Source of the DNA: an uncultured Gammaproteobacteria bacterium
GTDB lineage: Bacteria; Patescibacteriota; Microgenomatia; CAYXHB01
Assembly: GCA_964561945.1 (NCBI GenBank)
Contig: CAZLQM010000001.1
Span: 25,655 to 89,654 of the forward strand
Direction: 5' to 3'
Length of the DNA: 64,000 nucleotides
Under the pieces are notes generated by a model. The model was not told the DNA's origin. It did not search any database and was given only the letters and a program-made list of their open reading frames with translations. Shown one piece after another: positions 32,781 through 54,729 of the stretch. Position 1 is the first letter of the stretch, and every line of letters begins with the position of its first letter. A program made the position numbers and the translations under genes.

Positions 32781-33422
32781 TTATGAGTTTGGATATTTGA
32801 CGTTTATGGTGCGTTTGACGATGGTTTCGTTTTTGCGACGATTAATAGCTTGGATGATGATTTGCTGTCTGCCTGAATTGACTGGAATTTTGACTTGAAA
32901 TTTGCCTGAATTATCTAAGGATATTAATTGATTGTTTATCTTAACTACTGACGTGGGATCAGCAATACCAACAACTTGGACTGTAGATTCTGAAACAACT
33001 TGACCTTCAATAGGTAATGTAACAATAAGTTTGGGCTTGATCAGGCTGGTGTATTGGAAGGCTAGAAAACCTGAAAACAATGCTAGGGTAAAACCGACAA
33101 TTGTAAAAACAATAATTCGCGAATACCACCAAGGGGATGCTGGGGTAGATTCAATCATACTACGAGGAATAATTTGGCCCGATTCACTCTCCGCAAAATC
33201 ACGGCGAAAAATAGCTAATAAGGTTTGGGGATTAATGTTGAGAAATTGAGCGTAGTTCTTGATAAAACCTCGGGCATAGGTAGCAGATGGAAGTTTGTGA
33301 TATTCATCTGATTCGAGAGCTTGTAAATATTTGCTGTGGATTTTGATGGCATGACTGACTTGATCCAAGGTTAGAGATTGTTTGTGGCGCGTGGTTTGGA
33401 GTAATTGCCCGACGGTTTTCAT
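32781..33422 (-). CDS. rodZ: RodZ-like cytoskeleton protein (HTH, TM, C-terminal beta domain)
   Basis: 'MKTVGQLLQTTRHKQSLTLDQVSHAIKIHSKYLQALESDEY...YARGFIKNYAQFLNI', then a TM helix. Confidence 0.6.
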   Translation of the reverse strand: MKTVGQLLQTTRHKQSLTLDQVSHAIKIHSKYLQALESDEYHKLPSATYARGFIKNYAQFLNINPQTLLAIFRRDFAESESGQIIPRSMIESTPASPWWYSRIIVFTIVGFTLALFSGFLAFQYTSLIKPKLIVTLPIEGQVVSESTVQVVGIADPTSVVKINNQLISLDNSGKFQVKIPVNSGRQQIIIQAINRRKNETIVKRTINVKYPNS

Positions 33423-35670: not shown

Positions 35671-37323
35671 TTAAACTTCAATTACGACAGGTAAAATCAT
35701 GGGGTGGCGTTGAAGTTTGTCAGCAAAGTGATTGGCGAGAATATCAATGGTTTCTTGTTTAACATGGTGCCAGTCACTCATTGTCTTTTGGCGATTAAGG
35801 ATCGAATTGAGATGATGTTTGGCGGATAACAAAATTTCACTGTTAGGTTTAGCGTATATCAAACCTCTGGTGATAATATCAGGAGCTTCAGCAAGGCGTT
35901 TGGTTTCTGAGTCAATTTGGATTAGGACAACCACAATACCTTCCTCTGCCAAAACTTGTCTATCCCTCAATACAACATTGCCAACATCTCCGACCCCAAG
36001 GCCATCCACCATAACATTGCGGATTAGCGCATTGTCCCCAAGACGAACTCCTTGTTGATCGACGATGACAGTGCGACCTTCGGGCAATAGAACATTTTTG
36101 CGATCATAGCCCATAGATTCAGCTAAAAGTGAGTAATGAACCATGTGTCGAAAAGTTCCACCCACAGGCATGAAGTATTGAGGATTTGTTAAGTTTATAA
36201 GCATCATGAGATCATGACGACTGCCGTGGCCTGAAACATGTAAGTCGTCTTTGATATTGGCATAGGTAACCGTAGCACCACGTTCATAGAGGGCATCAAT
36301 GGCTGCGTGAATGGCGGTTTCTGAGCCTGGAATATAGTCTGAGGAAAATAGAACATGATCGCCTGGTTTGATATTAATGAAAGAGTGATCGCCAATGGCA
36401 AGACGTTGTAAGGCAGAGCCTGTTTGTCCTTGGCTTCCTGCAGTTAAAATGGTGACCTGATCATCCTTGTATTTACGCAGATTCTTGAGGGGAACAATCT
36501 GGCGGATATCCACATCTAGATATCCAAGTTTTTGGGCGATGGTAACGTTTTTCTCAATTGAACGACCTGCTATGAAAATCTTGCGCCCGTGTTTGATTGA
36601 AGCTGAGATAGCTTGCTGAAGACGTGATATGGAAGACGACATGGTGGTGACAATGAACTTACCTTTACAACTTGAGATCTCACGCTCAAACATTTCATCT
36701 AAACTTTTCTCGCTACGAGTAGCACCTTGGCGTTCGCTACCAAGAGAATCGGAAATTAGCAATTTGACTCCTAGATTACCCGCTTGGGCGATTTTGCCGA
36801 GCTCCGGTTGTTTACCATCAACTGGAGTGAAATCGAATTTGAAGTCAGCCCCATGATAGATAATGCCAGCACTGGTCTTGATGATGAGATGGAAGGTATC
36901 GGGAATTGAATGTGAAACACGAGCAAAACTAATCTCGAAGCCTCCAATTTTGATGGAAGCATCAGATGAGACTATTTGGATATTACGCTTAATGTTATAT
37001 TCTTGGAGTTTTGCTTGAGCTAGTGCTGCGGTGAGTCTGGCGGTATAAATTGGGAACTCAGGAAGTTGAGGTAAAATATAAGGTAATCCACCAATATGAT
37101 CTTCATGGCCATGGGTCAAAATCATGCCACGAATTTTTTCGCGTTTATTTTTGAGAAAACCCACATCTGGAATTAGGAGATCGACTCCAAGCATTTCTTC
37201 AGTAGGGAAACCGATGCCACAGTCGATGAGAAGAATATCAGTATCGGTTTCGTAAGCATACATATTACGAGTAACTTCACCAAAGCCTCCAAGGGAAGTG
37301 ATGTGTACGGTATTAGGATTCAT
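35671..37323 (-). CDS. rnj: ribonuclease J
   Basis: Metallo-beta-lactamase 'THGHEDHIGGLPY' plus beta-CASP and C-terminal domains in a 550-aa ORF. Confidence 0.9.
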   Translation of the reverse strand: MNPNTVHITSLGGFGEVTRNMYAYETDTDILLIDCGIGFPTEEMLGVDLLIPDVGFLKNKREKIRGMILTHGHEDHIGGLPYILPQLPEFPIYTARLTAALAQAKLQEYNIKRNIQIVSSDASIKIGGFEISFARVSHSIPDTFHLIIKTSAGIIYHGADFKFDFTPVDGKQPELGKIAQAGNLGVKLLISDSLGSERQGATRSEKSLDEMFEREISSCKGKFIVTTMSSSISRLQQAISASIKHGRKIFIAGRSIEKNVTIAQKLGYLDVDIRQIVPLKNLRKYKDDQVTILTAGSQGQTGSALQRLAIGDHSFINIKPGDHVLFSSDYIPGSETAIHAAIDALYERGATVTYANIKDDLHVSGHGSRHDLMMLINLTNPQYFMPVGGTFRHMVHYSLLAESMGYDRKNVLLPEGRTVIVDQQGVRLGDNALIRNVMVDGLGVGDVGNVVLRDRQVLAEEGIVVVLIQIDSETKRLAEAPDIITRGLIYAKPNSEILLSAKHHLNSILNRQKTMSDWHHVKQETIDILANHFADKLQRHPMILPVVIEV

Positions 37324-37337
37324 AAGTTTTTTATATT

Positions 37338-38423
37338 TTACCAGGTCGGCAGATAAGGTTTGATGTTTTCGGTAGTTAAGTCCAACGCTGTGATTTGACC
37401 TTCGACAATCTGTCGGGCAACCTTGCGACCGATTCCATTGATGGTTCTTTCTAAGGTACGAATACCCGAGTCAAAACCCAAAGGCCTAACGATGAGAGGC
37501 CAAGTGTCGTCGCTAATGGTAAGCTGATCTATATTGAGGCCTGAGTCTTGGATGACTTTGGGCAAAACGTATTCTCTACCGATATGAATTTTTTCATCAT
37601 CAGTATAAGATGGCATTCTGATTAATTCCATACGATCAAGAACCGCCGTTGCGATGTTATTGGTATTATTGGCTGTAGCTATAAATAGAGCTTGGGAAAG
37701 ATCAAAAGGATAATCGATGTAGTGATCGGTAAAAGCATTGTTCTGACCTGGATCTAACAATTCAACCAAAACTCCCATAATATCTCCTCTAACTTGTTCT
37801 GAAACACGATCAATTTCATCAAGGAGAATAACTGGATTTTTGACCTCAACTCGACGAAGTGACTTAAGAACTTGACCCACTTCGGCATCGGGTTGAATTC
37901 GCGATTGACCACGAAGAATTGAGGCATCACCCATACCTCCGAAAGGGATACGGACAAAAGGTCTTCCCATGGCTTCGGCTATTGATTTGGCGATAGTAGT
38001 TTTTCCAGTACCTACGAGCCCGACGAAGAATAGAATGGGGGCTCGCATTAATTGAGCCGTGACTTCTTCTTCAGACAGGTCTTGTGATTTGAGCTGAGTG
38101 GCCTTGAGTTGCATGACTGCGATTGATTCTAGAACGCGAGCTTTTATCTCCTCTAGTCCATAATGAGTCTTATCGAGAACTTGTTTAGCATAATTTAGAT
38201 CAAGGATATCTTGACTGCGCTTATACCAAGGCAAACTGCTAATCCATTCGACGTATTTAGAAACAGATTCGTATTCTTGAGAGTAAAATCCTGAGCTGAC
38301 AGCCCGATGGAGTCTACGTAACATGCTATTAACTCTATCCTCGAGAAGGGGTGGTAACTTAGTGTTATCAACTTGAGACTGTAAATTATTTAATTCCTCA
38401 ATTATATCTGGCTGCTCATTCAT
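37338..38423 (-). CDS. standalone Lon-derived AAA+ ATPase (helical linker plus AAA+ module only, no LAN or S16 peptidase domain)
   Basis: Aligns throughout with residues ~280-620 of the Lon encoded at 9538-11979: 'KTHYGLEEIKARVLESIAVMQL', Walker A 'GLVGTGKTTIAKSIA', 'ILLDEIDRV', 'DHYIDYPFDLSQALFIATAN'. It ends where the peptidase domain would begin. Confidence 0.8.
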   Translation of the reverse strand: MNEQPDIIEELNNLQSQVDNTKLPPLLEDRVNSMLRRLHRAVSSGFYSQEYESVSKYVEWISSLPWYKRSQDILDLNYAKQVLDKTHYGLEEIKARVLESIAVMQLKATQLKSQDLSEEEVTAQLMRAPILFFVGLVGTGKTTIAKSIAEAMGRPFVRIPFGGMGDASILRGQSRIQPDAEVGQVLKSLRRVEVKNPVILLDEIDRVSEQVRGDIMGVLVELLDPGQNNAFTDHYIDYPFDLSQALFIATANNTNNIATAVLDRMELIRMPSYTDDEKIHIGREYVLPKVIQDSGLNIDQLTISDDTWPLIVRPLGFDSGIRTLERTINGIGRKVARQIVEGQITALDLTTENIKPYLPTW

Positions 38424-38483
38424 ATATTATCCTAAAATTTACTATATCACGGGAAGCGTAAAAACACAGAATTTGGTTGAAAA

Positions 38484-40643
38484 TTAGCGATTGAAACGGC
38501 GTGGTCCACCACCTTGACGAGGCCTGTTGTCTCTACGAGGACCGTTGTCGGAGCGACGTGGAGCTCGCGGCTCGCTGTCTCCTGGGTTGGAATCCAATAA
38601 CATAGTTAAGTTTAATCTGCCCATATCATCAATTTCCATGACTTTAACGGTTACTTTGTCACCTTCGGAAACTAAGTCTTGGGGATCATTAACATATTCT
38701 CGTGACATTTGAGATACATGCACAAGGCCTTCGCGCCCTGGGAAAATTTCTACGAAAGCTCCAAAATTAACCAGTCTGGTAACTGTGCCTTCATATAACT
38801 GTCCCGGCTCTGGTTCCGTAGTAAGATTTTTGACCCAATCAACTGCTTTATCGAGGCTTTCTTGACTGGTAGCACTAATCATAACCGTGCCATCATCTTC
38901 AACGTCAACTGTAGCTGAGGTTTCGGCAATAATACGACGGATCATGCGACCACCTGGACCAATAACTTCGCCGATCTTCTCAACTGGGATTTTGACTTGT
39001 TGAACCTTAGGAGCAAAAACAGAAACTTGTACGCGGGGTTGAGATATTGCCTGATTCATTTTGTCTAAGATGAAAAGCCTATCTTGGCGAGCTCGCTTGA
39101 TAATCTCGGACACTAAAGGAAGTGATAGACCTGTAATTTTGACGTCTAGTTGAACTGCAGTAATGCCTGTGACTGTACCTGCAACTTTGAAATCCATGTC
39201 GCCATTGAAGTCTTCGATGCCTGCAATGTCGCTTAGAACAAGTGGTCCTTCAGGTGCGTCGGAGATCAAACCCATAGCAACTCCTGCAACTGGCGCTTTG
39301 ATAGGAACTCCAGCATCCATTAAAGCGAGGGTTGAACCCGAAACTGAAGCTTGGGAAGTTGATCCATTGGATGAAAGAATATCAGAAACAACTCTTATGG
39401 TGTAAGGAAATTCGGAGAGTGAAGGGATGACTGGCAAAAGAGCCTTTTCAGCCAAAGCTCCGTGACCGACTTCACGCCTGCCTGGACCGAACATGCGACT
39501 AGCTTCTCCAACTGAGAATGGAGGGAAATTATAGTGATGGATATAATGTTTTTCAAGTTCTTCGGTAGTAGTTTCGATGAGGAGCCCAAAAGCTGGAGTT
39601 GCTAGAGTGGCTACAGTTAATGCTTGCGTGGTACCGCGTGAAAATAGAGCGCTACCATGGACACGGGGCAAAACTCCAACCTCTGCTGAGATTGTGCGAA
39701 TCTCGTCTATCTTGCGACTGTCAGTGCGCTTGCCTGAGGCAATAATGGCTCGAATGGCTTTTTTCCATTGATAATTAAAGGCTTTCTCAAGCAATTTGCC
39801 ATCGGCATCTATATTGGTTTCTTTGAAAGTTTGGAATGGCACGTCAAATTCTATAGTCGAACCGTCTTTTTGGGCTGTAGATATATAGTCAGCAATGACT
39901 TTTTGGGCTTGAGTTTTGAGATCTGAAGGGATTTCTGGAGCGGAAACCACGATCTTGGTAGTTTGCACTTTGGACATTAATTCTTCGATGAGCTCAATAA
40001 CGAGTTTGTTTTGGGTGTGAGCGAATTCCATCGCTTGAACAAATTGATCATCAGGAAGTTGGTTGGCGCCTGCCTCGATCATGTTGATGACATCTTTGTT
40101 ACCTGCAACGAATAATTCTAGTGATGATTTGGCAATCTGTGCAGGTGAAGGATTGGCGATCAGTTCTCCGTCTACCATGCCGACCTTAACTCCACCTAAG
40201 GGACCGGCCCAAGGGGCGGGTGAAATGGCTAGTGCCGCTGAGGCTCCGATAAAACTTGCAATATCCAATTCGGCTTCTCCGTCATATGCCAACTCGGTCA
40301 TGATGACTTGAACTTCTCGATTGAAATTTTTGTCAAACAAAGGACGAATAGCTCGATCAACTAAGCGACCGGTAAGCACGGCATCATCTGAAGGACGACC
40401 CTCACGCTTGACCCAGCGAGAACCTTTGATTTTGCCACTAGCATAAAGGCGCTCAATGTATTCAACAGATAAAGGAAAATATCCAAGACTAGGATTATCT
40501 CTACCGACTACGACAGTAACGAGAACGACACTTTCTCCGTATTGAACCCAAACAGCACTATCTGCTTGACTGGCTACTTTGCCGATTTCTAGTTTGAGTG
40601 TTTTGCCCGCAATTTCTCTGCTAACACTTACAATTTGTGACAT
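38484..40643 (-). CDS. pnp: polynucleotide phosphorylase with an Arg/Gly-rich basic C-terminal tail
   Basis: Two RNase PH domains, KH and S1 in a 719-aa ORF. The tail reads 'DSEPRAPRRSDNGPRRDNRPRQGGGPRRFNR'. Confidence 0.95.
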   Translation of the reverse strand: MSQIVSVSREIAGKTLKLEIGKVASQADSAVWVQYGESVVLVTVVVGRDNPSLGYFPLSVEYIERLYASGKIKGSRWVKREGRPSDDAVLTGRLVDRAIRPLFDKNFNREVQVIMTELAYDGEAELDIASFIGASAALAISPAPWAGPLGGVKVGMVDGELIANPSPAQIAKSSLELFVAGNKDVINMIEAGANQLPDDQFVQAMEFAHTQNKLVIELIEELMSKVQTTKIVVSAPEIPSDLKTQAQKVIADYISTAQKDGSTIEFDVPFQTFKETNIDADGKLLEKAFNYQWKKAIRAIIASGKRTDSRKIDEIRTISAEVGVLPRVHGSALFSRGTTQALTVATLATPAFGLLIETTTEELEKHYIHHYNFPPFSVGEASRMFGPGRREVGHGALAEKALLPVIPSLSEFPYTIRVVSDILSSNGSTSQASVSGSTLALMDAGVPIKAPVAGVAMGLISDAPEGPLVLSDIAGIEDFNGDMDFKVAGTVTGITAVQLDVKITGLSLPLVSEIIKRARQDRLFILDKMNQAISQPRVQVSVFAPKVQQVKIPVEKIGEVIGPGGRMIRRIIAETSATVDVEDDGTVMISATSQESLDKAVDWVKNLTTEPEPGQLYEGTVTRLVNFGAFVEIFPGREGLVHVSQMSREYVNDPQDLVSEGDKVTVKVMEIDDMGRLNLTMLLDSNPGDSEPRAPRRSDNGPRRDNRPRQGGGPRRFNR

Positions 40644-40746: not shown

Positions 40747-41016
40747 TTATTTGGAGAGTCCAAGTTTGCCAATTATTGTTTGATAGCGATCTAGATTTTT
40801 GGTCATGAGGTAGTGTAACAAACGGCGTCTTTTGGAAACCATTGAAAGCAAGCCTTTACGCGAATGAACATCTTTCTTATGTTCTCGGAGATGCTCGGCG
40901 AGTTTGTCAATTTTAGCACTAAGAAGTGCAACTTGAACTTCTGGGCTACCAGTGTCGCCAGACCCGGTGGAGTATTCGGTAATTATTTTTTGTTTTTGGT
41001 CAACTAGAAGTGACAT
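40747..41016 (-). CDS. rpsO: 30S ribosomal protein S15
   Basis: 89 aa with '[26 protein letters not shown]'. Confidence 0.95.
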
Positions 41017-41027
41017 ATTATTATTAG

Positions 41028-41924
41028 TTATTGAACTTCACGTATTGTATCAGGTACGGGCTTGGTTGGCAAATTGGCCATGTGATCGATGTTGCCTTTA
41101 ATCCACTTAGGGATAGGCTTGTTGGTTTTTGGGGTTTGCTGATTATTAGGTCGAGAAGGAATTGTGGCATTTGAGGTTGTTGTGAGTGGGGTAAAACTGC
41201 GATAATTACGAGTGCCTCCTGCATTGAGACACTCGGCTGTCATGGTAAAAACTTCCGAAGGGAGATCGGGATTGGCAAATCTTTCAGTTCGGTTTTCTAA
41301 GCCCGTAAGTAACAAGGTAGCGATAGTTGGTTCTAGTTTGATTTGAAGGGACTTGAATAACTGCCAAATAACGAAGGTAAGTGACGGTGCGGAAGGATTG
41401 GGATATTCTTGAATACGGGGATCTGGTTGAAGTTTTTCGGAGGTAGAGAATCTAGTGGTAATTAATTTGTTTTGGGTTAGTTGTTTGAGTTCAGAATTAT
41501 TGATAGCCTCGCGGGAAGCACCAATTAAAATAACTAAGTCGGCATCTACGCCTGTATAACTAAATTCCATTTGGGAGATGTCTAAAGGTTGAGAGTTGGT
41601 TTTGGTTTGAATGATGATGGCAAATCTGCCCTTATCACGTTGAGCTTCGGTCATGACTTGAGACACAGAATCTTGCGCGTCTGGCCAAGAGATAATGATG
41701 TTTTTGCCCTTAATTTCTGATTGAATCATCGATTGAGCTGGTAATTGCCACTCTTGATGGGCATGGCCAAGAATCGAGATCTGTTTGCCCTTGGCTTTGA
41801 AACCGAGAGCCAAGGCAAGAGCTGTGCAAGCCTGATCAAGCAAGGCATTGGCTGGAAGTACGATAACTATGCTATTTGATTGGGTAATCTTGGTTAGTAG
41901 TGATTCTTGAGAAAGACTGTCCAT
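41028..41924 (-). CDS. NrnA/DHH-DHHA1-like protein with degenerate catalytic motifs (probable pseudo-enzyme) and a Pro/Thr/Asn-rich C-terminal tail
   Basis: It is collinear with NrnA but every catalytic motif is substituted: DxD becomes 'PANALLDQA', the DHH triad becomes 'ILIGASR', GDTGxF becomes '[13 protein letters not shown]', and GGGH becomes 'NAGGTRNY'. Confidence 0.5.
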
Positions 41925-41977: not shown

Positions 41978-43414
41978 CTAGCTAGATTTGGCAGGAAGTT
42001 TCTTAGGTTTGAATGCAATTAAGTTATCACCTACTCGGAAATCAATATAGGGCGAAAACACACAGCCAAATTCTTGATTGAGAGCAACTTTGGAAACTGG
42101 GTTTTTGGCTTGTTTGAGACTGGAAATACGGCTAGTGCCGACGTTAGTTTGATTGCGAATCAAATCAACTTGGATATCATCTAAAATTTCACCTTCGGTT
42201 ACTTTGCAACCTGCGATGCGATGTTTGTCTATTTTGAATTCGGCGTTGATGTCTGCTTTGCCGATTATGTCACGATCATAATAAGGATCTATAGTGCGAT
42301 TGTATAGTTCGTCAATGTATTCATATAATTCATAGATAATATTAAATGACTTGACGGTTACTTTTTCGGCCTCTGCCACTCGGATAACCTGATTAGGAAC
42401 TAAGACGGAAAATGCGACGATGAAAGCACCAGCACTCTTGGCCAAGGAAATATCCCCTGGGGTCACGTCGCCCACTGTGGACGAGAAAATGGTTACTCCT
42501 TGAGGAATAATTGTTTGGATAGCTTCAAGTGAGCCTTGTGCATCTGCCTTGATGATACAAGTGAGTACCGGCTTTATAGGTTCATTTCTGCTTTGGTTGG
42601 GAGATGTTTCTTGAGATGAAGTCGAGGAAAGAACCGCACCAACTTGAGGTATGGAATCCCAACCCATAATTTGAACTGGAGTACTGGGAAGAGCTTCTTT
42701 GAGACTTTTGCCAAGATGATCGGTTAGTGATTTGACTTTGGCTTGAGCTTGGTGAGCGTAGATTGTGTCCCTGACCTTGAGAGTACCCTCGGTTATTACT
42801 GCTGTGGCGATAATCCCTCGATGGGGATCTTTTTGGGATTCGATAATGACTCCCGAAATATCAGACTTAGGGTCAGCCTTTAGATCAGTAAGCTGAGCGA
42901 CTAAAAGTAGAGTTTCAAGTAATGTATCTATGCCTTTGCCTGAAACACTAGAAACTTCGACGACAGGAATGTCCCCGCCAAATCCTTCAACTAAACACCC
43001 TTGTTCGGCTAGTTCTTGTTTGGCTCTGGTGGGATTGGCAGTGGCGATATCACTTTTGGTTAGGGCCACAATATAAGGAACTTGAGCCTGCTTGATATGA
43101 TCTAAGGATTCTTTGGTTTGAGGCTTGACCCCTTCTGTGGCGGCAACAACTAAGATTACGATATCAGCCACTTTGCCCCCGCGAGAACGCATTTGCGAAA
43201 AGGCAGCATGACCTGGTGTGTCAATAAAGGTAATTTTGTGAGATTGGTGTTGGGGATCTTTAACTTCAACTTGGTAAGCTCCGATATGCTGAGTAATTCC
43301 CCCGTGTTCTTTTTGGGCAACTTTAGTTTTGCGGATATAATCCAATAACGAAGTTTTGCCATGATCTACATGGCCCATAATTGTAACGATTGGGGGTCTT
43401 GAGATAGCTGTCAT
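41978..43414 (-). CDS. infB: translation initiation factor IF-2, short form starting at the G domain
   Basis: 'IVTIMGHVDHGKTSLLD' lies at residue 8. Only 478 aa. Confidence 0.9.
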   Translation of the reverse strand: MTAISRPPIVTIMGHVDHGKTSLLDYIRKTKVAQKEHGGITQHIGAYQVEVKDPQHQSHKITFIDTPGHAAFSQMRSRGGKVADIVILVVAATEGVKPQTKESLDHIKQAQVPYIVALTKSDIATANPTRAKQELAEQGCLVEGFGGDIPVVEVSSVSGKGIDTLLETLLLVAQLTDLKADPKSDISGVIIESQKDPHRGIIATAVITEGTLKVRDTIYAHQAQAKVKSLTDHLGKSLKEALPSTPVQIMGWDSIPQVGAVLSSTSSQETSPNQSRNEPIKPVLTCIIKADAQGSLEAIQTIIPQGVTIFSSTVGDVTPGDISLAKSAGAFIVAFSVLVPNQVIRVAEAEKVTVKSFNIIYELYEYIDELYNRTIDPYYDRDIIGKADINAEFKIDKHRIAGCKVTEGEILDDIQVDLIRNQTNVGTSRISSLKQAKNPVSKVALNQEFGCVFSPYIDFRVGDNLIAFKPKKLPAKSS

Positions 43415-43472: not shown

Positions 43473-44555
43473 TTAATCTAGCTCTTTTGGATCGGCTTGG
43501 GACGGTTCTTGGTCATCATCTGCTTCAACAGTGGCAGATTCTGCACTCCGTGAGGATTCTGGTTTGATACCAGAGGCTCCTACGACATCAAGTTTATACC
43601 CTGTAAGTTTTGCAGCCAAGCGTACGTTTTGACCGTCTTTGCCAATGGCCAGAGAGAGTTGGTCATCAGGAACGGTAACTAGGGCAGTAAGTTCTTCGTC
43701 ATTAACGAGAACAGATTGGACAGTGGCTGGTGACATGGCCGCAGCGATAAAACGAGATGCATCGGCGTTGTATTCGATGATGTCGATTTTTTCGCCCTTG
43801 AGTTCGTTGATTACAGCTTGGACTCGGACGCCTTTTTGACCGACGCACGAGCCAACAGGATCAACTCCTTGTTGAGATGAGAAGACTGCCATCTTGGTGC
43901 GAGCTCCAGCCTCACGAGCAATGGACTTGACCTCAACGTTGCCAGAGTTAACCTCGGGGACTTCACGTTTGAAAAGTTGTACTACCAAATTCTTGTGAGC
44001 ACGAGAGAGAATTATTTCTTCTCCACGGATGGTTTCTTTGATTGATTCAATATAAAAAACCAAGCGTTGATTAAGCTCATAATCTTCGCTGATGACTTGT
44101 TCGTATTGAGGCATGAAGCCTTCGGCCTTGCCTAAATCAACGATGATATTATGACCGTCAATTCTCATGATCATCCCGTTGACTATTGATCCTACACGCT
44201 CCTTGTAAGCTGCGATGATAACTGATTTTTCAGCTTCCCGCATTTTTTGGATAATTACTTGCTTGGCAGTTTGTGCTGCGATGCGACCAAATCCAGGAGG
44301 GGTAACGTCTTTCATTTTGCCTGGGTTATCTGGATCTGCGGTTGTCATCATGATCCCACCGTTTACTGGATCTACGTCAACTTTGTATTCAATGGATTCG
44401 TCGATTTCTTCACCGCGTTCCTTGGCATCTTTTTGGAATGCAGCCACGATGGAAGACTCGATAGCACCAAGAACCATCTCGGGATCAATGCCCCTGTCGT
44501 TAGCCAATTGGTTAACGGCGGCGGCGAATTCTGTACGTGCGATTACTTTGGCCAT
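43473..44555 (-). CDS. nusA: transcription termination/antitermination factor NusA with an acidic C-terminal tail
   Basis: 'MAKVIARTEFAAAVNQLANDRGIDPEMV...' with S1 and KH domains. I used the ATG at 44555; the ORF-track extension to 44663 relies on a TTG start and crosses the terminator hairpin. Confidence 0.9.
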   Translation of the reverse strand: MAKVIARTEFAAAVNQLANDRGIDPEMVLGAIESSIVAAFQKDAKERGEEIDESIEYKVDVDPVNGGIMMTTADPDNPGKMKDVTPPGFGRIAAQTAKQVIIQKMREAEKSVIIAAYKERVGSIVNGMIMRIDGHNIIVDLGKAEGFMPQYEQVISEDYELNQRLVFYIESIKETIRGEEIILSRAHKNLVVQLFKREVPEVNSGNVEVKSIAREAGARTKMAVFSSQQGVDPVGSCVGQKGVRVQAVINELKGEKIDIIEYNADASRFIAAAMSPATVQSVLVNDEELTALVTVPDDQLSLAIGKDGQNVRLAAKLTGYKLDVVGASGIKPESSRSAESATVEADDDQEPSQADPKELD

Positions 44556-53367: not shown

Positions 53368-53501
53368 GTTGTTTAAATTTACTAGGATTAAAAAATCTTC
53401 TTTGAAGTTTTGAGTTGGATTGGAAAAATGAAAGGATTGTTTTGGTATTTATACTTGTGATTGGGGATTGGAGTCATTTATACTGATAAGTGTTTCCTGC
53501 C

Positions 53502-54074
53502 ATGGCTAAACGCACCCCGTCGATAAATTTACTCCACCAAGTTAATGCTACAAGTTCTGTAGACAAGATATTATCGTGGGCTTTGTCAGTGGGAAGATGG
53601 ATTGTAATTTTGACTGAGTTAGTAGTTATCGGAGCATTTATTTGGAGATTCTCTCTGGATATCAAACTAACTAACCTTAATGAAGACATCGAAATGCGCA
53701 AAAACCAAGTCAAGGCATTTGCTTCGGTTGAGAAGGAGTTTCGAACTGTTCAGAAAAGCGTTAATTCCGTAGCAACTGTGGTGGGAATGCAGCCAGATAT
53801 ACAACTGATTTTCAATGAATTTAATCGAAGTTTCCCGATTTCTACAGACATTACTATTAATCAGTTAAATTGGAATAGCGATAAGTTATCGATTAAAGGA
53901 GAATCTGTTGATGAGAAAACAATTTCAATATTCGAGAATAATTTTAGGTCTTCGGCAATAATTAAAAATGTCAATTTGACCAATGTAAGTTTGAAAGTCG
54001 AAGAAAATGATGTTGCTACTAATAGTAAATATTTATACGAATTTAGTTTAACGGCAGATATAAAATTAAAGTAA
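53502..54074 (+). CDS. pilN: PilN-like type IV pilus/pseudopilus assembly protein
   Basis: 'MAKRTPSINLL', then a single TM helix and a coiled-coil periplasmic domain. Confidence 0.5.
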   Translation: MAKRTPSINLLHQVNATSSVDKILSWALSVGRWIVILTELVVIGAFIWRFSLDIKLTNLNEDIEMRKNQVKAFASVEKEFRTVQKSVNSVATVVGMQPDIQLIFNEFNRSFPISTDITINQLNWNSDKLSIKGESVDEKTISIFENNFRSSAIIKNVNLTNVSLKVEENDVATNSKYLYEFSLTADIKLK

Positions 54075-54075
54075 T

Positions 54076-54729
54076 ATGAAGTTAAATGACTCAAAAATAA
54101 ATAACAAGTTTTCTTTTAAAAGCTCTCAGAAATTGGTGGACTCAAAGAAACGACAAACTTATATGGAGCTGATTTTGACGTTTGTAACAATATTGTTTTT
54201 TGGGGTCTTTGCTCTTAAGCCCACTTTCTCGACAATTGCAACGTTGCTTGGTGATATTACAAATTTGGAAGAAGTAAATAATAAGTTAAAAGAAAAACTT
54301 GATTCTTTGGCTACAGCTCAGCAAGTACTAGATAAAAATCGTGAACAACTTTATTTCGTGCAAGAGGCTTTGCCTGACAATCCTAATTTGGCAACTTTTG
54401 TAGCTCAAGTTGATAGAGCTAATGAAAATAGTGAGTTTGTTTTGGAAACAATTATGTTTGGGGATTATGAAGTTGATCCAAGCGGTAAGACGAAAGCGGT
54501 TGATTCCAATGCTGAAAAAAAAGGGCCTATTGGCGAATGGAACAATATTAGTTTCACGATTGAGGGAACCGGGAAATATGATGCTATTCTAGATTTTGCT
54601 AAGAAAATTGCTAATTTCCGAAGAGTTGTAGTTTTGGATTCTATTTCCATAGATTATAGTGATGTCGAGAATGAAAATGATTTACCAAAGGTTACTATTA
54701 ATGGAACGATTCTATCGAAACTTAAATAA
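54076..54729 (+). CDS. pilO: PilO-like assembly protein
   Basis: Basic N-terminus, TM helix, coiled coil and a C-terminal beta domain. Starts 2 bp after the pilN-like stop. Confidence 0.45.
   Translation: MKLNDSKINNKFSFKSSQKLVDSKKRQTYMELILTFVTILFFGVFALKPTFSTIATLLGDITNLEEVNNKLKEKLDSLATAQQVLDKNREQLYFVQEALPDNPNLATFVAQVDRANENSEFVLETIMFGDYEVDPSGKTKAVDSNAEKKGPIGEWNNISFTIEGTGKYDAILDFAKKIANFRRVVVLDSISIDYSDVENENDLPKVTINGTILSKLK

Follow-up and report, generated by a model that had tools for sequence, protein, structure and literature searches.

Introduction

Some members of the DHH superfamily no longer carry a working active site. Cdc45 and inactivated archaeal homologues of RecJ have been documented as structural subunits of this kind whose gene context is retained (Makarova et al., 2012, PMC3307487; Oyama et al., 2016, PMC5100581). 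Among the phosphoesterases of the superfamily, the NrnA' clade is defined by the neighboring genes infB, rbfA, and nusA (Srivastav et al., 2014, PMC4081065), and infB, rbfA, and nrnA' are co-transcribed in M. smegmatis (PMC4081065), so that a DHH gene at the infB position should be regarded as ancestral and already known. According to a survey from 2025, the Dojkabacteria, WWE3, and Microgenomatia have lost der, era, and rbfA, and RimP is poorly conserved in the candidate phyla radiation (CPR) (PMC12641178). In the Microgenomatia, the loss of these three genes implies a changed operon slot and a changed biology around IF2 and the 30S subunit; the absence of rbfA from the locus described here agrees with this loss.

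This locus is an open reading frame (ORF) at positions 41028-41924 on the minus strand of a 64-kb stretch of DNA from contig CAZLQM010000001.1; the whole stretch is called the window in the following, and all features are located on its minus strand unless stated otherwise. The ORF starts with ATG and codes for 298 amino acids plus the stop codon. As seen from the ORF listing, it lies between infB and rpsO in a nusA-infB-X-rpsO-pnp arrangement (X standing for the ORF), as had been noted in an initial inspection of the DNA letters (termed the sequence-only reading below), which took the product for a catalytically dead relative of NrnA held in this gene block. The analysis presented here supports a pseudo-enzyme of the NrnA/DHH lineage at this position and describes it as a degenerate DHH protein devoid of the DHHA1 domain, which is under purifying selection and belongs to a family found next to infB in many Microgenomatia.

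Homology and fold of the window protein

The relationship of the window protein to the DHH proteins is hardly visible from its single sequence. The Pfam DHH model (PF01368) yields 12.1 bits (E = 0.25) at a cut-off of 28.1 bits, which is not significant and does not by itself carry the assignment to the NrnA type proposed in the sequence-only reading. A phmmer search of the PDB with the single protein returned nothing meaningful, and a word-indexed homology search with it retrieved only the protein itself and one orthologue of 77% identity. The identical protein is present in several public assemblies, and the 77%-identical orthologue is encoded in the same nusA-infB-X-rpsO-pnp-AAA-rnj-ftsK arrangement. 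A BLASTP comparison with the NrnA-like protein encoded in the same window gave an E value of 2e-8 over residues 176-231, which cover the motif IV region; the similarity between these two proteins is only local, amounting to 36% identity over 56 residues.

The affiliation becomes evident at the level of the family, which was collected by an exhaustive HMMER search seeded with the window protein and its 77%-identical orthologue. A profile of 143 members matches TM1595 (3e-20) and MSMEG_2630 (6e-19) best among the PDB entries, followed by S. aureus NrnA, the RecJ-like protein of D. radiodurans, and Rv2837c (1e-14 to 1e-16) and by B. subtilis NrnA (1e-11), while GdpP and the family II pyrophosphatases obtain much weaker scores. 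PF01368 is matched by 48 of the 143 members, with a best E value of 3.3e-13. A structural model obtained with AlphaFold2 (AF2) from an alignment of these 143 sequences reaches a mean predicted local distance difference test (pLDDT) value of 87, with values above 90 for residues 1-240; this is the model reported here, since a run with the two-sequence alignment was unusable (pLDDT 45.7). It shows the DHH alpha/beta fold with a five-stranded parallel sheet, and the 50 best PDB matches in a Foldseek search with it are all DHH proteins, headed by TM1595 (1.3e-9), Borrelia DhhP, and Rv2837c. Because the BLASTP comparison, the family profile, and the modeled fold agree, the homology of the window protein to the NrnA-type branch of the DHH superfamily appears solid on the grounds of sequence and predicted structure.

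Loss of the catalytic site

The catalytic motifs were located by aligning both proteins of the window to the hidden Markov model (HMM) of the family and counting the respective columns in 197 members. As judged from this alignment and the secondary structure of the AF2 model, the DHH core of the window protein is divided into an N-terminal part (residues 1-71, positions 41712-41924, containing beta1, alpha1, and beta2) and a C-terminal part (residues 128-240, positions 41205-41543), the latter being also supported by the profile alignments to the PDB. In motif I, the His is replaced by P24 and the first Asp of the DxD element by L28 (within 'LPANALLD'), and both ligands are lost in the family as well, while the second Asp is conserved as D30 (codon at positions 41835-41837), which is Asp in 185 and Glu in 12 of the 197 members according to the column counts and represents the only canonical metal ligand kept. 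The Asp of motif II corresponds to G135 in the segment 'ILIGASR', a position occupied by Gly in 158 of the 197 members; this segment had been taken for the DHH triad in the sequence-only reading, but the triad of motif III aligns to E163-K164-L165 and is lost throughout the family. At the motif IV position the window protein carries R212 (in 'ENRTERF'), and Asp is not common there in the family: it does not occur among the seven commonest residues, the least frequent of which is found in 10 of the 197 members, and it is also missing in the 15 best-preserved members, while the Thr and Phe that follow are retained.

Taken over all motifs, seven of the eight metal or catalytic ligands are lost in the window protein, so that the proposed substitution of all motifs holds except for D30, which is nearly invariant in the family. 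None of the 197 members carries all eight ligands together, and the maximum is five. The profile alignment and the column counts indicate that the ligands are lost rather than displaced to neighboring positions, as there is no conserved His in the window protein; H54 and H56, located near beta2, are replaced even in the orthologue of 77% identity. The set of motifs I-IV (H/DxD, D, DHH, D) by which NrnA binds two metal ions is not present. The conclusion of a catalytically dead protein stands as far as it can be read from the aligned residues, and the window protein is predicted not to hydrolyze RNA of two to five nucleotides, 3'-phosphoadenosine-5'-phosphate (pAp), or linear dinucleotides. The apparently active NrnA-like paralogue of the window (positions 1-886; identified from its translation and a Pfam DHH match of 57.9 bits) shows intact DHH motifs I-IV; the earlier statement that every one of its motifs is intact applies to these four, since the gene is cut by the window edge ahead of the position coding for the GGGH motif.

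Domains lost and gained

The window protein had also been described as collinear with the DHH-DHHA1 architecture of NrnA, of which only the DHH part is borne out. PF02272, the Pfam model of the DHHA1 domain, is matched by none of the 143 family members, and the profile alignments to PDB entries end near chain residue 210. The segment 'NAGGTRNY', which had been proposed to replace the GGGH motif of DHHA1, forms the last helix of the DHH domain instead, located about 20 residues past motif IV (family consensus LLRxGAxR) and aligning to residues ~180-190 of TM1595. The GGGH-bearing DHHA1 domain characteristic of NrnA is absent, and the window protein is therefore a DHH-only remnant that is not collinear with full-length NrnA.

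Three elements set the family apart from NrnA. A family-specific beta insertion of about 55 residues (residues 72-127, positions 41544-41711) is located between beta2 and the motif II strand, as deduced from a split of the profile-to-PDB alignments at profile positions 75-130, the HMM alignment, and the AF2 model, in which it consists of four beta strands (residues 75-79, 87-95, 100-107, and 120-124; pLDDT >90); no such insertion is present in NrnA. The second element, a tail rich in Pro, Thr, Asn, and Gln (residues 241-298, positions 41031-41204), takes the place of the NrnA linker and the DHHA1 domain; the Pro/Thr/Asn-rich composition had been recognized before, and the tail is now predicted to be disordered, showing no regular structure and pLDDT values of 56-63 in the AF2 model. 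In the family, these tails comprise 12-384 amino acids of low complexity and are rich in Pro, Gln, Ser, and Lys; such a variable length is as expected for a tether. The third element is a short peptide near the C terminus, which reads P.DWLKPKI[YF]KG in most members and ends 5-8 residues (usually 6) before the stop codon in 78 of 80 loci and 16 residues before it in the other two. A divergent copy of 13 residues is seen in the C-terminal listings at residues 270-282 of the window protein (positions 41079-41117), where the HMM alignment places W274-I275-K276 on the W-L-K of the motif.

The insertion signature (NLVISF.Y...I[DE]KVSY.I....FNL.I.PK.G) and the C-terminal peptide are the most conserved elements of the family outside the DHH core. 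The group consensus sequences show that the insertion of the window protein has drifted from this signature (IIISWPD...VSQVMTE). Docking of the peptide on the insertion of the same family, which would predict that the two elements co-vary, is not supported, as the insertion signature is common to subgroups A and B and their peptides are different. A search of the window and of ~1 Mb of DNA from the fetched loci for neighboring proteins with the same peptide, which would have pointed to a shared hub, found none, and the longer family members contain no fused domains, only longer tails. The folded domain is acidic, with a mean net charge of -7.5 in the family and of -3 in the window protein. Direct RNA binding, one of the two roles suggested in the sequence-only reading, is disfavored because of this acidic domain and the loss of the RNA-binding DHHA1 domain, while a scaffolding role is retained as the most reasonable reading.

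Selection and linkage to infB

A comparison with the 77%-identical orthologue by the Nei-Gojobori method gave ratios of nonsynonymous to synonymous substitutions (dN/dS) of 0.08 for residues 1-240, 0.28 for the tail, and 0.11 overall. Because of these low values, the ORF is regarded as a gene under purifying selection and not as a decaying one. The sequence identity to the counterparts in other Microgenomates is ~27-30% for the ORF product, compared with 45-66% for IF2, PNPase, NusA, and S15.

The gene order was evaluated in 80 loci, which were fetched out of 330 confirmed ones. The gene directly upstream on the same strand is infB in 79 of them, the eightieth being cut by a contig end. Between the infB stop codon and the first ATG, the median distance is 9 nt; it does not exceed 150 nt in 77 of the 79 loci, and several loci show stop/start overlaps of -1 or -4 that are typical of translational coupling. 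On the 3' side, 44 of the 80 loci have rpsO-pnp within 300 nt and another 20 have it at a greater distance, while it is missing from the flank of the remaining 16; in Roizmanbacteria, rmuC and then a full recJ gene are found downstream instead of rpsO-pnp. The adjacency to infB persists where the downstream genes differ, including the Roizmanbacteria, as well as in the divergent clade to which the window protein belongs, which keeps the order infB-X-rpsO-pnp-AAA-rnj. The expectation that relatives carry the same protein in the gap between infB and rpsO is thus borne out on the infB side and only partly on the rpsO side: the invariant neighbor is infB rather than rpsO or pnp. The window locus shares the infB-side location of the NrnA' clade, with rbfA being absent.

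Extent and subgroups of the family

The HMMER search yielded 797 representatives (after clustering at 50%) at E values up to 1e-3 and 351 at up to 1e-10; they are 270-400 amino acids long and all align over query positions ~8-260. A genome scan was performed on one genome per GTDB species with a peptide pattern derived from a 25-sequence alignment, and it recorded at least 330 species-level genomes with a confirmed locus carrying the exact peptide. The named records among these 330 are Woese-, Gottesman-, Roizman-, Shapiro-, Chisholm-, or Levyibacteria or belong to the 'Microgenomates group'. In addition, many TPA_asm metagenome-assembled genomes (MAGs) with the CPR-type locus (L007, L011, L015, L016, L020, and others) are titled 'uncultured Gammaproteobacteria/Pseudomonadales bacterium'; these titles look like placeholders or errors, because the gene order and the short IF2 match those of named Microgenomates MAGs.

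In the word-indexed search, all family members reach 242 bits or more, and no true DHH-DHHA1 protein exceeds 94 bits; a single intermediate, the 530-amino-acid protein P0197, lies between the two groups at 152 bits. The family members recovered in this search bear either PF01368 or no Pfam domain. No description of the family was found in the literature, and there is no model of it in NCBIfam. The proteins constitute a discrete and apparently as yet undescribed family. The automatic names of some members, 'nanoRNase/pAp phosphatase' (given by JGI) and 'Phosphoesterase RecJ domain protein', go back only to the weak DHH similarity; the first of these names is very likely wrong.

A small clade of divergent members (P0001-P0004, P0008, P0009, and P0016) includes the window protein; only W-I-K-(G/P)..ID is left of the peptide in this clade, and drift is seen in the insertion signature as well. 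The members of a sister subgroup, type B, end in GGLxYQPSG or Lys-rich tails instead of the usual peptide. Type B genes (L087:6001-6939, L090:6001-6981, and L092:436-1374) stand alone without adjoining infB genes and are flanked by large ORFs on the opposite strand that have no Pfam matches and by clusters of T4SS_pilin (PF18895) genes. A Roizmanbacteria-like clade (P0166-P0192; L088:6001-6954) keeps four to five of the eight ligands in the pattern D..D..D-R-H and may represent a less decayed state. P0197 (L094:459-2051) shows a faint DHH match and a very long Pro-rich tail, and its gene is located 5' of truB, an ORF of 99 codons, and rpsO and does not directly follow infB; P0197 may connect the family evolutionarily with the classical truB-rpsO position. 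A true NrnA-like relative is located after ribF, and the positions of these two genes both fall within the classical infB-rbfA-truB-ribF-rpsO-pnp region.

The gene neighborhood in the window

The ORF is part of a same-strand housekeeping block comprising lepA, hrcA, grpE, dnaK, dnaJ, nusA, infB, the ORF itself, rpsO, pnp, a gene for a Lon-like AAA protein, the RNase J gene, ftsK, and a RodZ-like gene. Upstream of it, infB (positions 41978-43414; assigned by Pfam and synteny) ends at a distance of 53 nt and is preceded by nusA (positions 43473-44555), also assigned by Pfam; downstream, rpsO, coding for ribosomal protein S15 (positions 40747-41016), follows after 11 nt. A consensus scan of this strand revealed no terminator-like site between infB, the ORF, and rpsO. 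As stated in the sequence-only reading, rbfA and truB are missing from the operon: neither is present between infB and rpsO, and truB has no match anywhere in the window. The infB gene codes for a minimal IF2 of 478 amino acids, which has the G domain at its very start (the GTP_EFTU match begins with residue 9) and lacks the N-terminal region of most bacterial IF2 proteins entirely; the IF2 proteins of related loci are similarly short (474-486 amino acids). An AR1/AR2 domain was not detected by Pfam in the NusA protein of the window, and the nusA gene calls in related loci correspond to 360-361 amino acids.

Beyond rpsO, the block continues with pnp, coding for polynucleotide phosphorylase (positions 38484-40643), the gene for the Lon-like AAA protein (positions 37338-38423), and rnj, coding for RNase J (positions 35671-37323), and the order pnp-lonAAA-rnj is kept in most related loci. 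The Lon-like protein consists of 361 amino acids with AAA and Lon_lid domains but lacks the protease domain of Lon, and it could act as an unfoldase tied to RNA turnover. The Rfam scan of the window returned a single match at the gathering threshold, the plant miRNA family MIR480 at positions 38365-38496 of the plus strand (35.8 bits, E = 0.26), which covers the pnp/AAA intergenic region and the adjoining gene ends and is almost certainly spurious, as it scores at chance level. At the edge of the window, the NrnA-like gene lies directly 3' of a gene for a predicted PolB-exo/RNase H-like 3'-5' exonuclease on the same strand (positions 889-1836), which suggests a small nuclease operon (positions 1-1836). 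Other genes of the window include a RodZ-like gene with HTH_25 and Glucodextran_B domains at positions 32781-33422 and PilN- and PilO-like genes at positions 53490-54729 of the plus strand.

Discussion

The most plausible function of the window protein would be that of a non-catalytic adaptor made together with IF2 and descended from the infB-linked NrnA-type (COG0618, NrnA') DHH phosphoesterases, a proposal to which we give roughly an even chance of being correct. The acidic DHH core and the insertion would together provide one binding surface, and the flexible linker would enable the C-terminal peptide to fish for a second partner, which may belong to the translation-initiation, 30S, or RNA-turnover machinery encoded nearby; the hydrolysis of nano-RNA would be left to the NrnA paralogue at positions 1-886. 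A more far-reaching version, in which the family represents an unrecognized translation-initiation or 30S-maturation factor of the Microgenomatia, i.e., a dead nanoRNase that was turned into an IF2-coupled adaptor, makes up for the lost RbfA and Era, and docks on IF2 or the small subunit via peptide and insertion, is considered improbable.

Several observations weigh against the adaptor proposal. In the window protein, both the peptide (WIKGNID...) and the insertion depart from the consensus of the family, so that it may act in another way than typical members do, and the occurrence of type B genes beside T4SS-pilin-like genes instead of infB implies that the function of the core fold is not intrinsically tied to IF2. 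Judging by the four to five ligands retained, the D..D..D-R-H clade could still bind metal. Moreover, the adjacency to infB may merely be inherited from the NrnA' ancestor without implying any physical interaction with IF2.

The same operon structure might alternatively be explained by a scaffold for RNA degradation that bridges PNPase, RNase J, and/or the Lon-like AAA protein. In other bacteria, RNase E provides the scaffold of the degradosome through its C-terminal half, which is disordered and bears motifs, and the combination of a disordered linker with a short conserved peptide would resemble this design by analogy; the X-rpsO-pnp-lonAAA-rnj block is also kept in most loci, and the ancestor was an enzyme of RNA turnover. 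However, infB is always adjacent, whereas rpsO/pnp is missing downstream in 16 of the 80 loci and more than 300 nt away in 20, and rmuC-recJ follows in the Roizmanbacteria, which makes this function rather unlikely. A partner of a different kind would be the active NrnA itself. Homodimers of NrnA use a DHH-DHH interface, and pseudoenzymes often act on their active paralogues; the dead DHH protein might form heterodimers via this interface and either inhibit NrnA or use the peptide to anchor it to a cellular machine. The window does contain an NrnA-like gene that is apparently active, and enzymes of the NrnA type have been reported as dimers (PMC4081065), but the two genes are ~40 kb apart without co-localization, their products share only the local similarity in the motif IV region, and the 55-residue insertion in the DHH domain could alter the interface. 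We therefore see little probability in a regulator or tether of NrnA.

The nearly invariant D30, the highly conserved insertion, and the clade with four to five ligands (D, D, D-R-H) might also be taken as traces of a residual enzyme or of a small-molecule sensor with a non-canonical site around D30 and the insertion, which would, for example, bind nanoRNA, pAp, or cyclic or linear dinucleotides without cleaving them, and the automatic JGI name 'nanoRNase/pAp phosphatase' of some members points in the same direction. This is very unlikely in view of the lack of a conserved His, with H54 and H56 not even kept in the 77%-identical orthologue, the fact that Asp is not a common residue at the motif IV position, and the absence of DHHA1, which binds the substrate in NrnA, GdpP, and RecJ; the automatic names reflect only the weak DHH similarity. 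Finally, the lost catalytic motifs and the faster evolution compared to the neighboring genes would be consistent with a functionless, decaying nrnA' relic kept only through its position in an essential operon. The dN/dS value of 0.08, the intact ORF in hundreds of species, the gain of new conserved elements (the insertion and a peptide at a fixed distance from the end), and the confident, well-folded AF2 model render such a relic exceedingly improbable.

Returning to the proposed adaptor, its potential interest lies in the biology of the CPR bacteria, which translate with about half of the usual ribosome-biogenesis factors; the family could bear on how they manage to do so. Being a conserved and selected descendant of an RNA-turnover enzyme that has not retained catalysis, is in many cases translationally coupled to IF2, and is equipped with a tethered peptide that may serve for docking, it offers a concrete and testable candidate for a lineage-specific accessory factor and a lead into how the Microgenomatia organize translation and RNA metabolism with a depleted set of factors.

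Comparison with known systems

The closest described relatives of the family are the proteins of the NrnA'/CnpB clade (MSMEG_2630 and Rv2837c), together with TM1595 and B. burgdorferi DhhP, which share the DHH fold and provide the best profile and Foldseek matches. The location of the gene in the nusA-infB operon region is also common to the NrnA' clade (PMC4081065). The family differs from this clade by the loss of ligands (seven of eight in the window protein) and of DHHA1 with its GGGH motif, by the 55-residue beta insertion between beta2 and the motif II strand, by the disordered tail with the C-terminal peptide, and by an operon without rbfA.

With respect to its general design, a globular domain followed by a disordered, low-complexity linker of highly variable length and a short peptide a few residues from the terminus, the family is reminiscent of FtsZ with its C-terminal linker and peptide, of the C-terminal tip of SSB, and of the RNase E scaffold. 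The resemblance is confined to the design. No ftsZ gene was found in any of the fetched DNA.

A functional parallel is provided by Cdc45 and the archaeal RecJ homologues (RecJdbd/arCOG00428/arCOG00432), which have likewise lost the DHH catalytic residues and kept the ancestral genomic context. These proteins contain insertions mediating protein contacts (the CID domain) and are interpreted as dedicated structural components (PMC3307487, PMC5100581). They belong to the RecJ clade, take part in DNA replication, still possess a DHHA1-like domain, and have their insertion behind the DHH domain, whereas the family described here is bacterial, belongs to the NrnA clade, consists of a DHH domain only with the insertion inside it, and is linked to genes of translation and RNA metabolism. 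As judged from the apparently dead site, the selection, and the ancestral context, the family would belong with the inactivated DHH proteins, which form a functional class rather than a clade; it is part of the NrnA branch and not of the RecJ branch. The family is an inactivated DHH protein like Cdc45, widespread in one class of the CPR, and would constitute a bacterial counterpart of Cdc45 as a DHH nuclease turned into a structural subunit.

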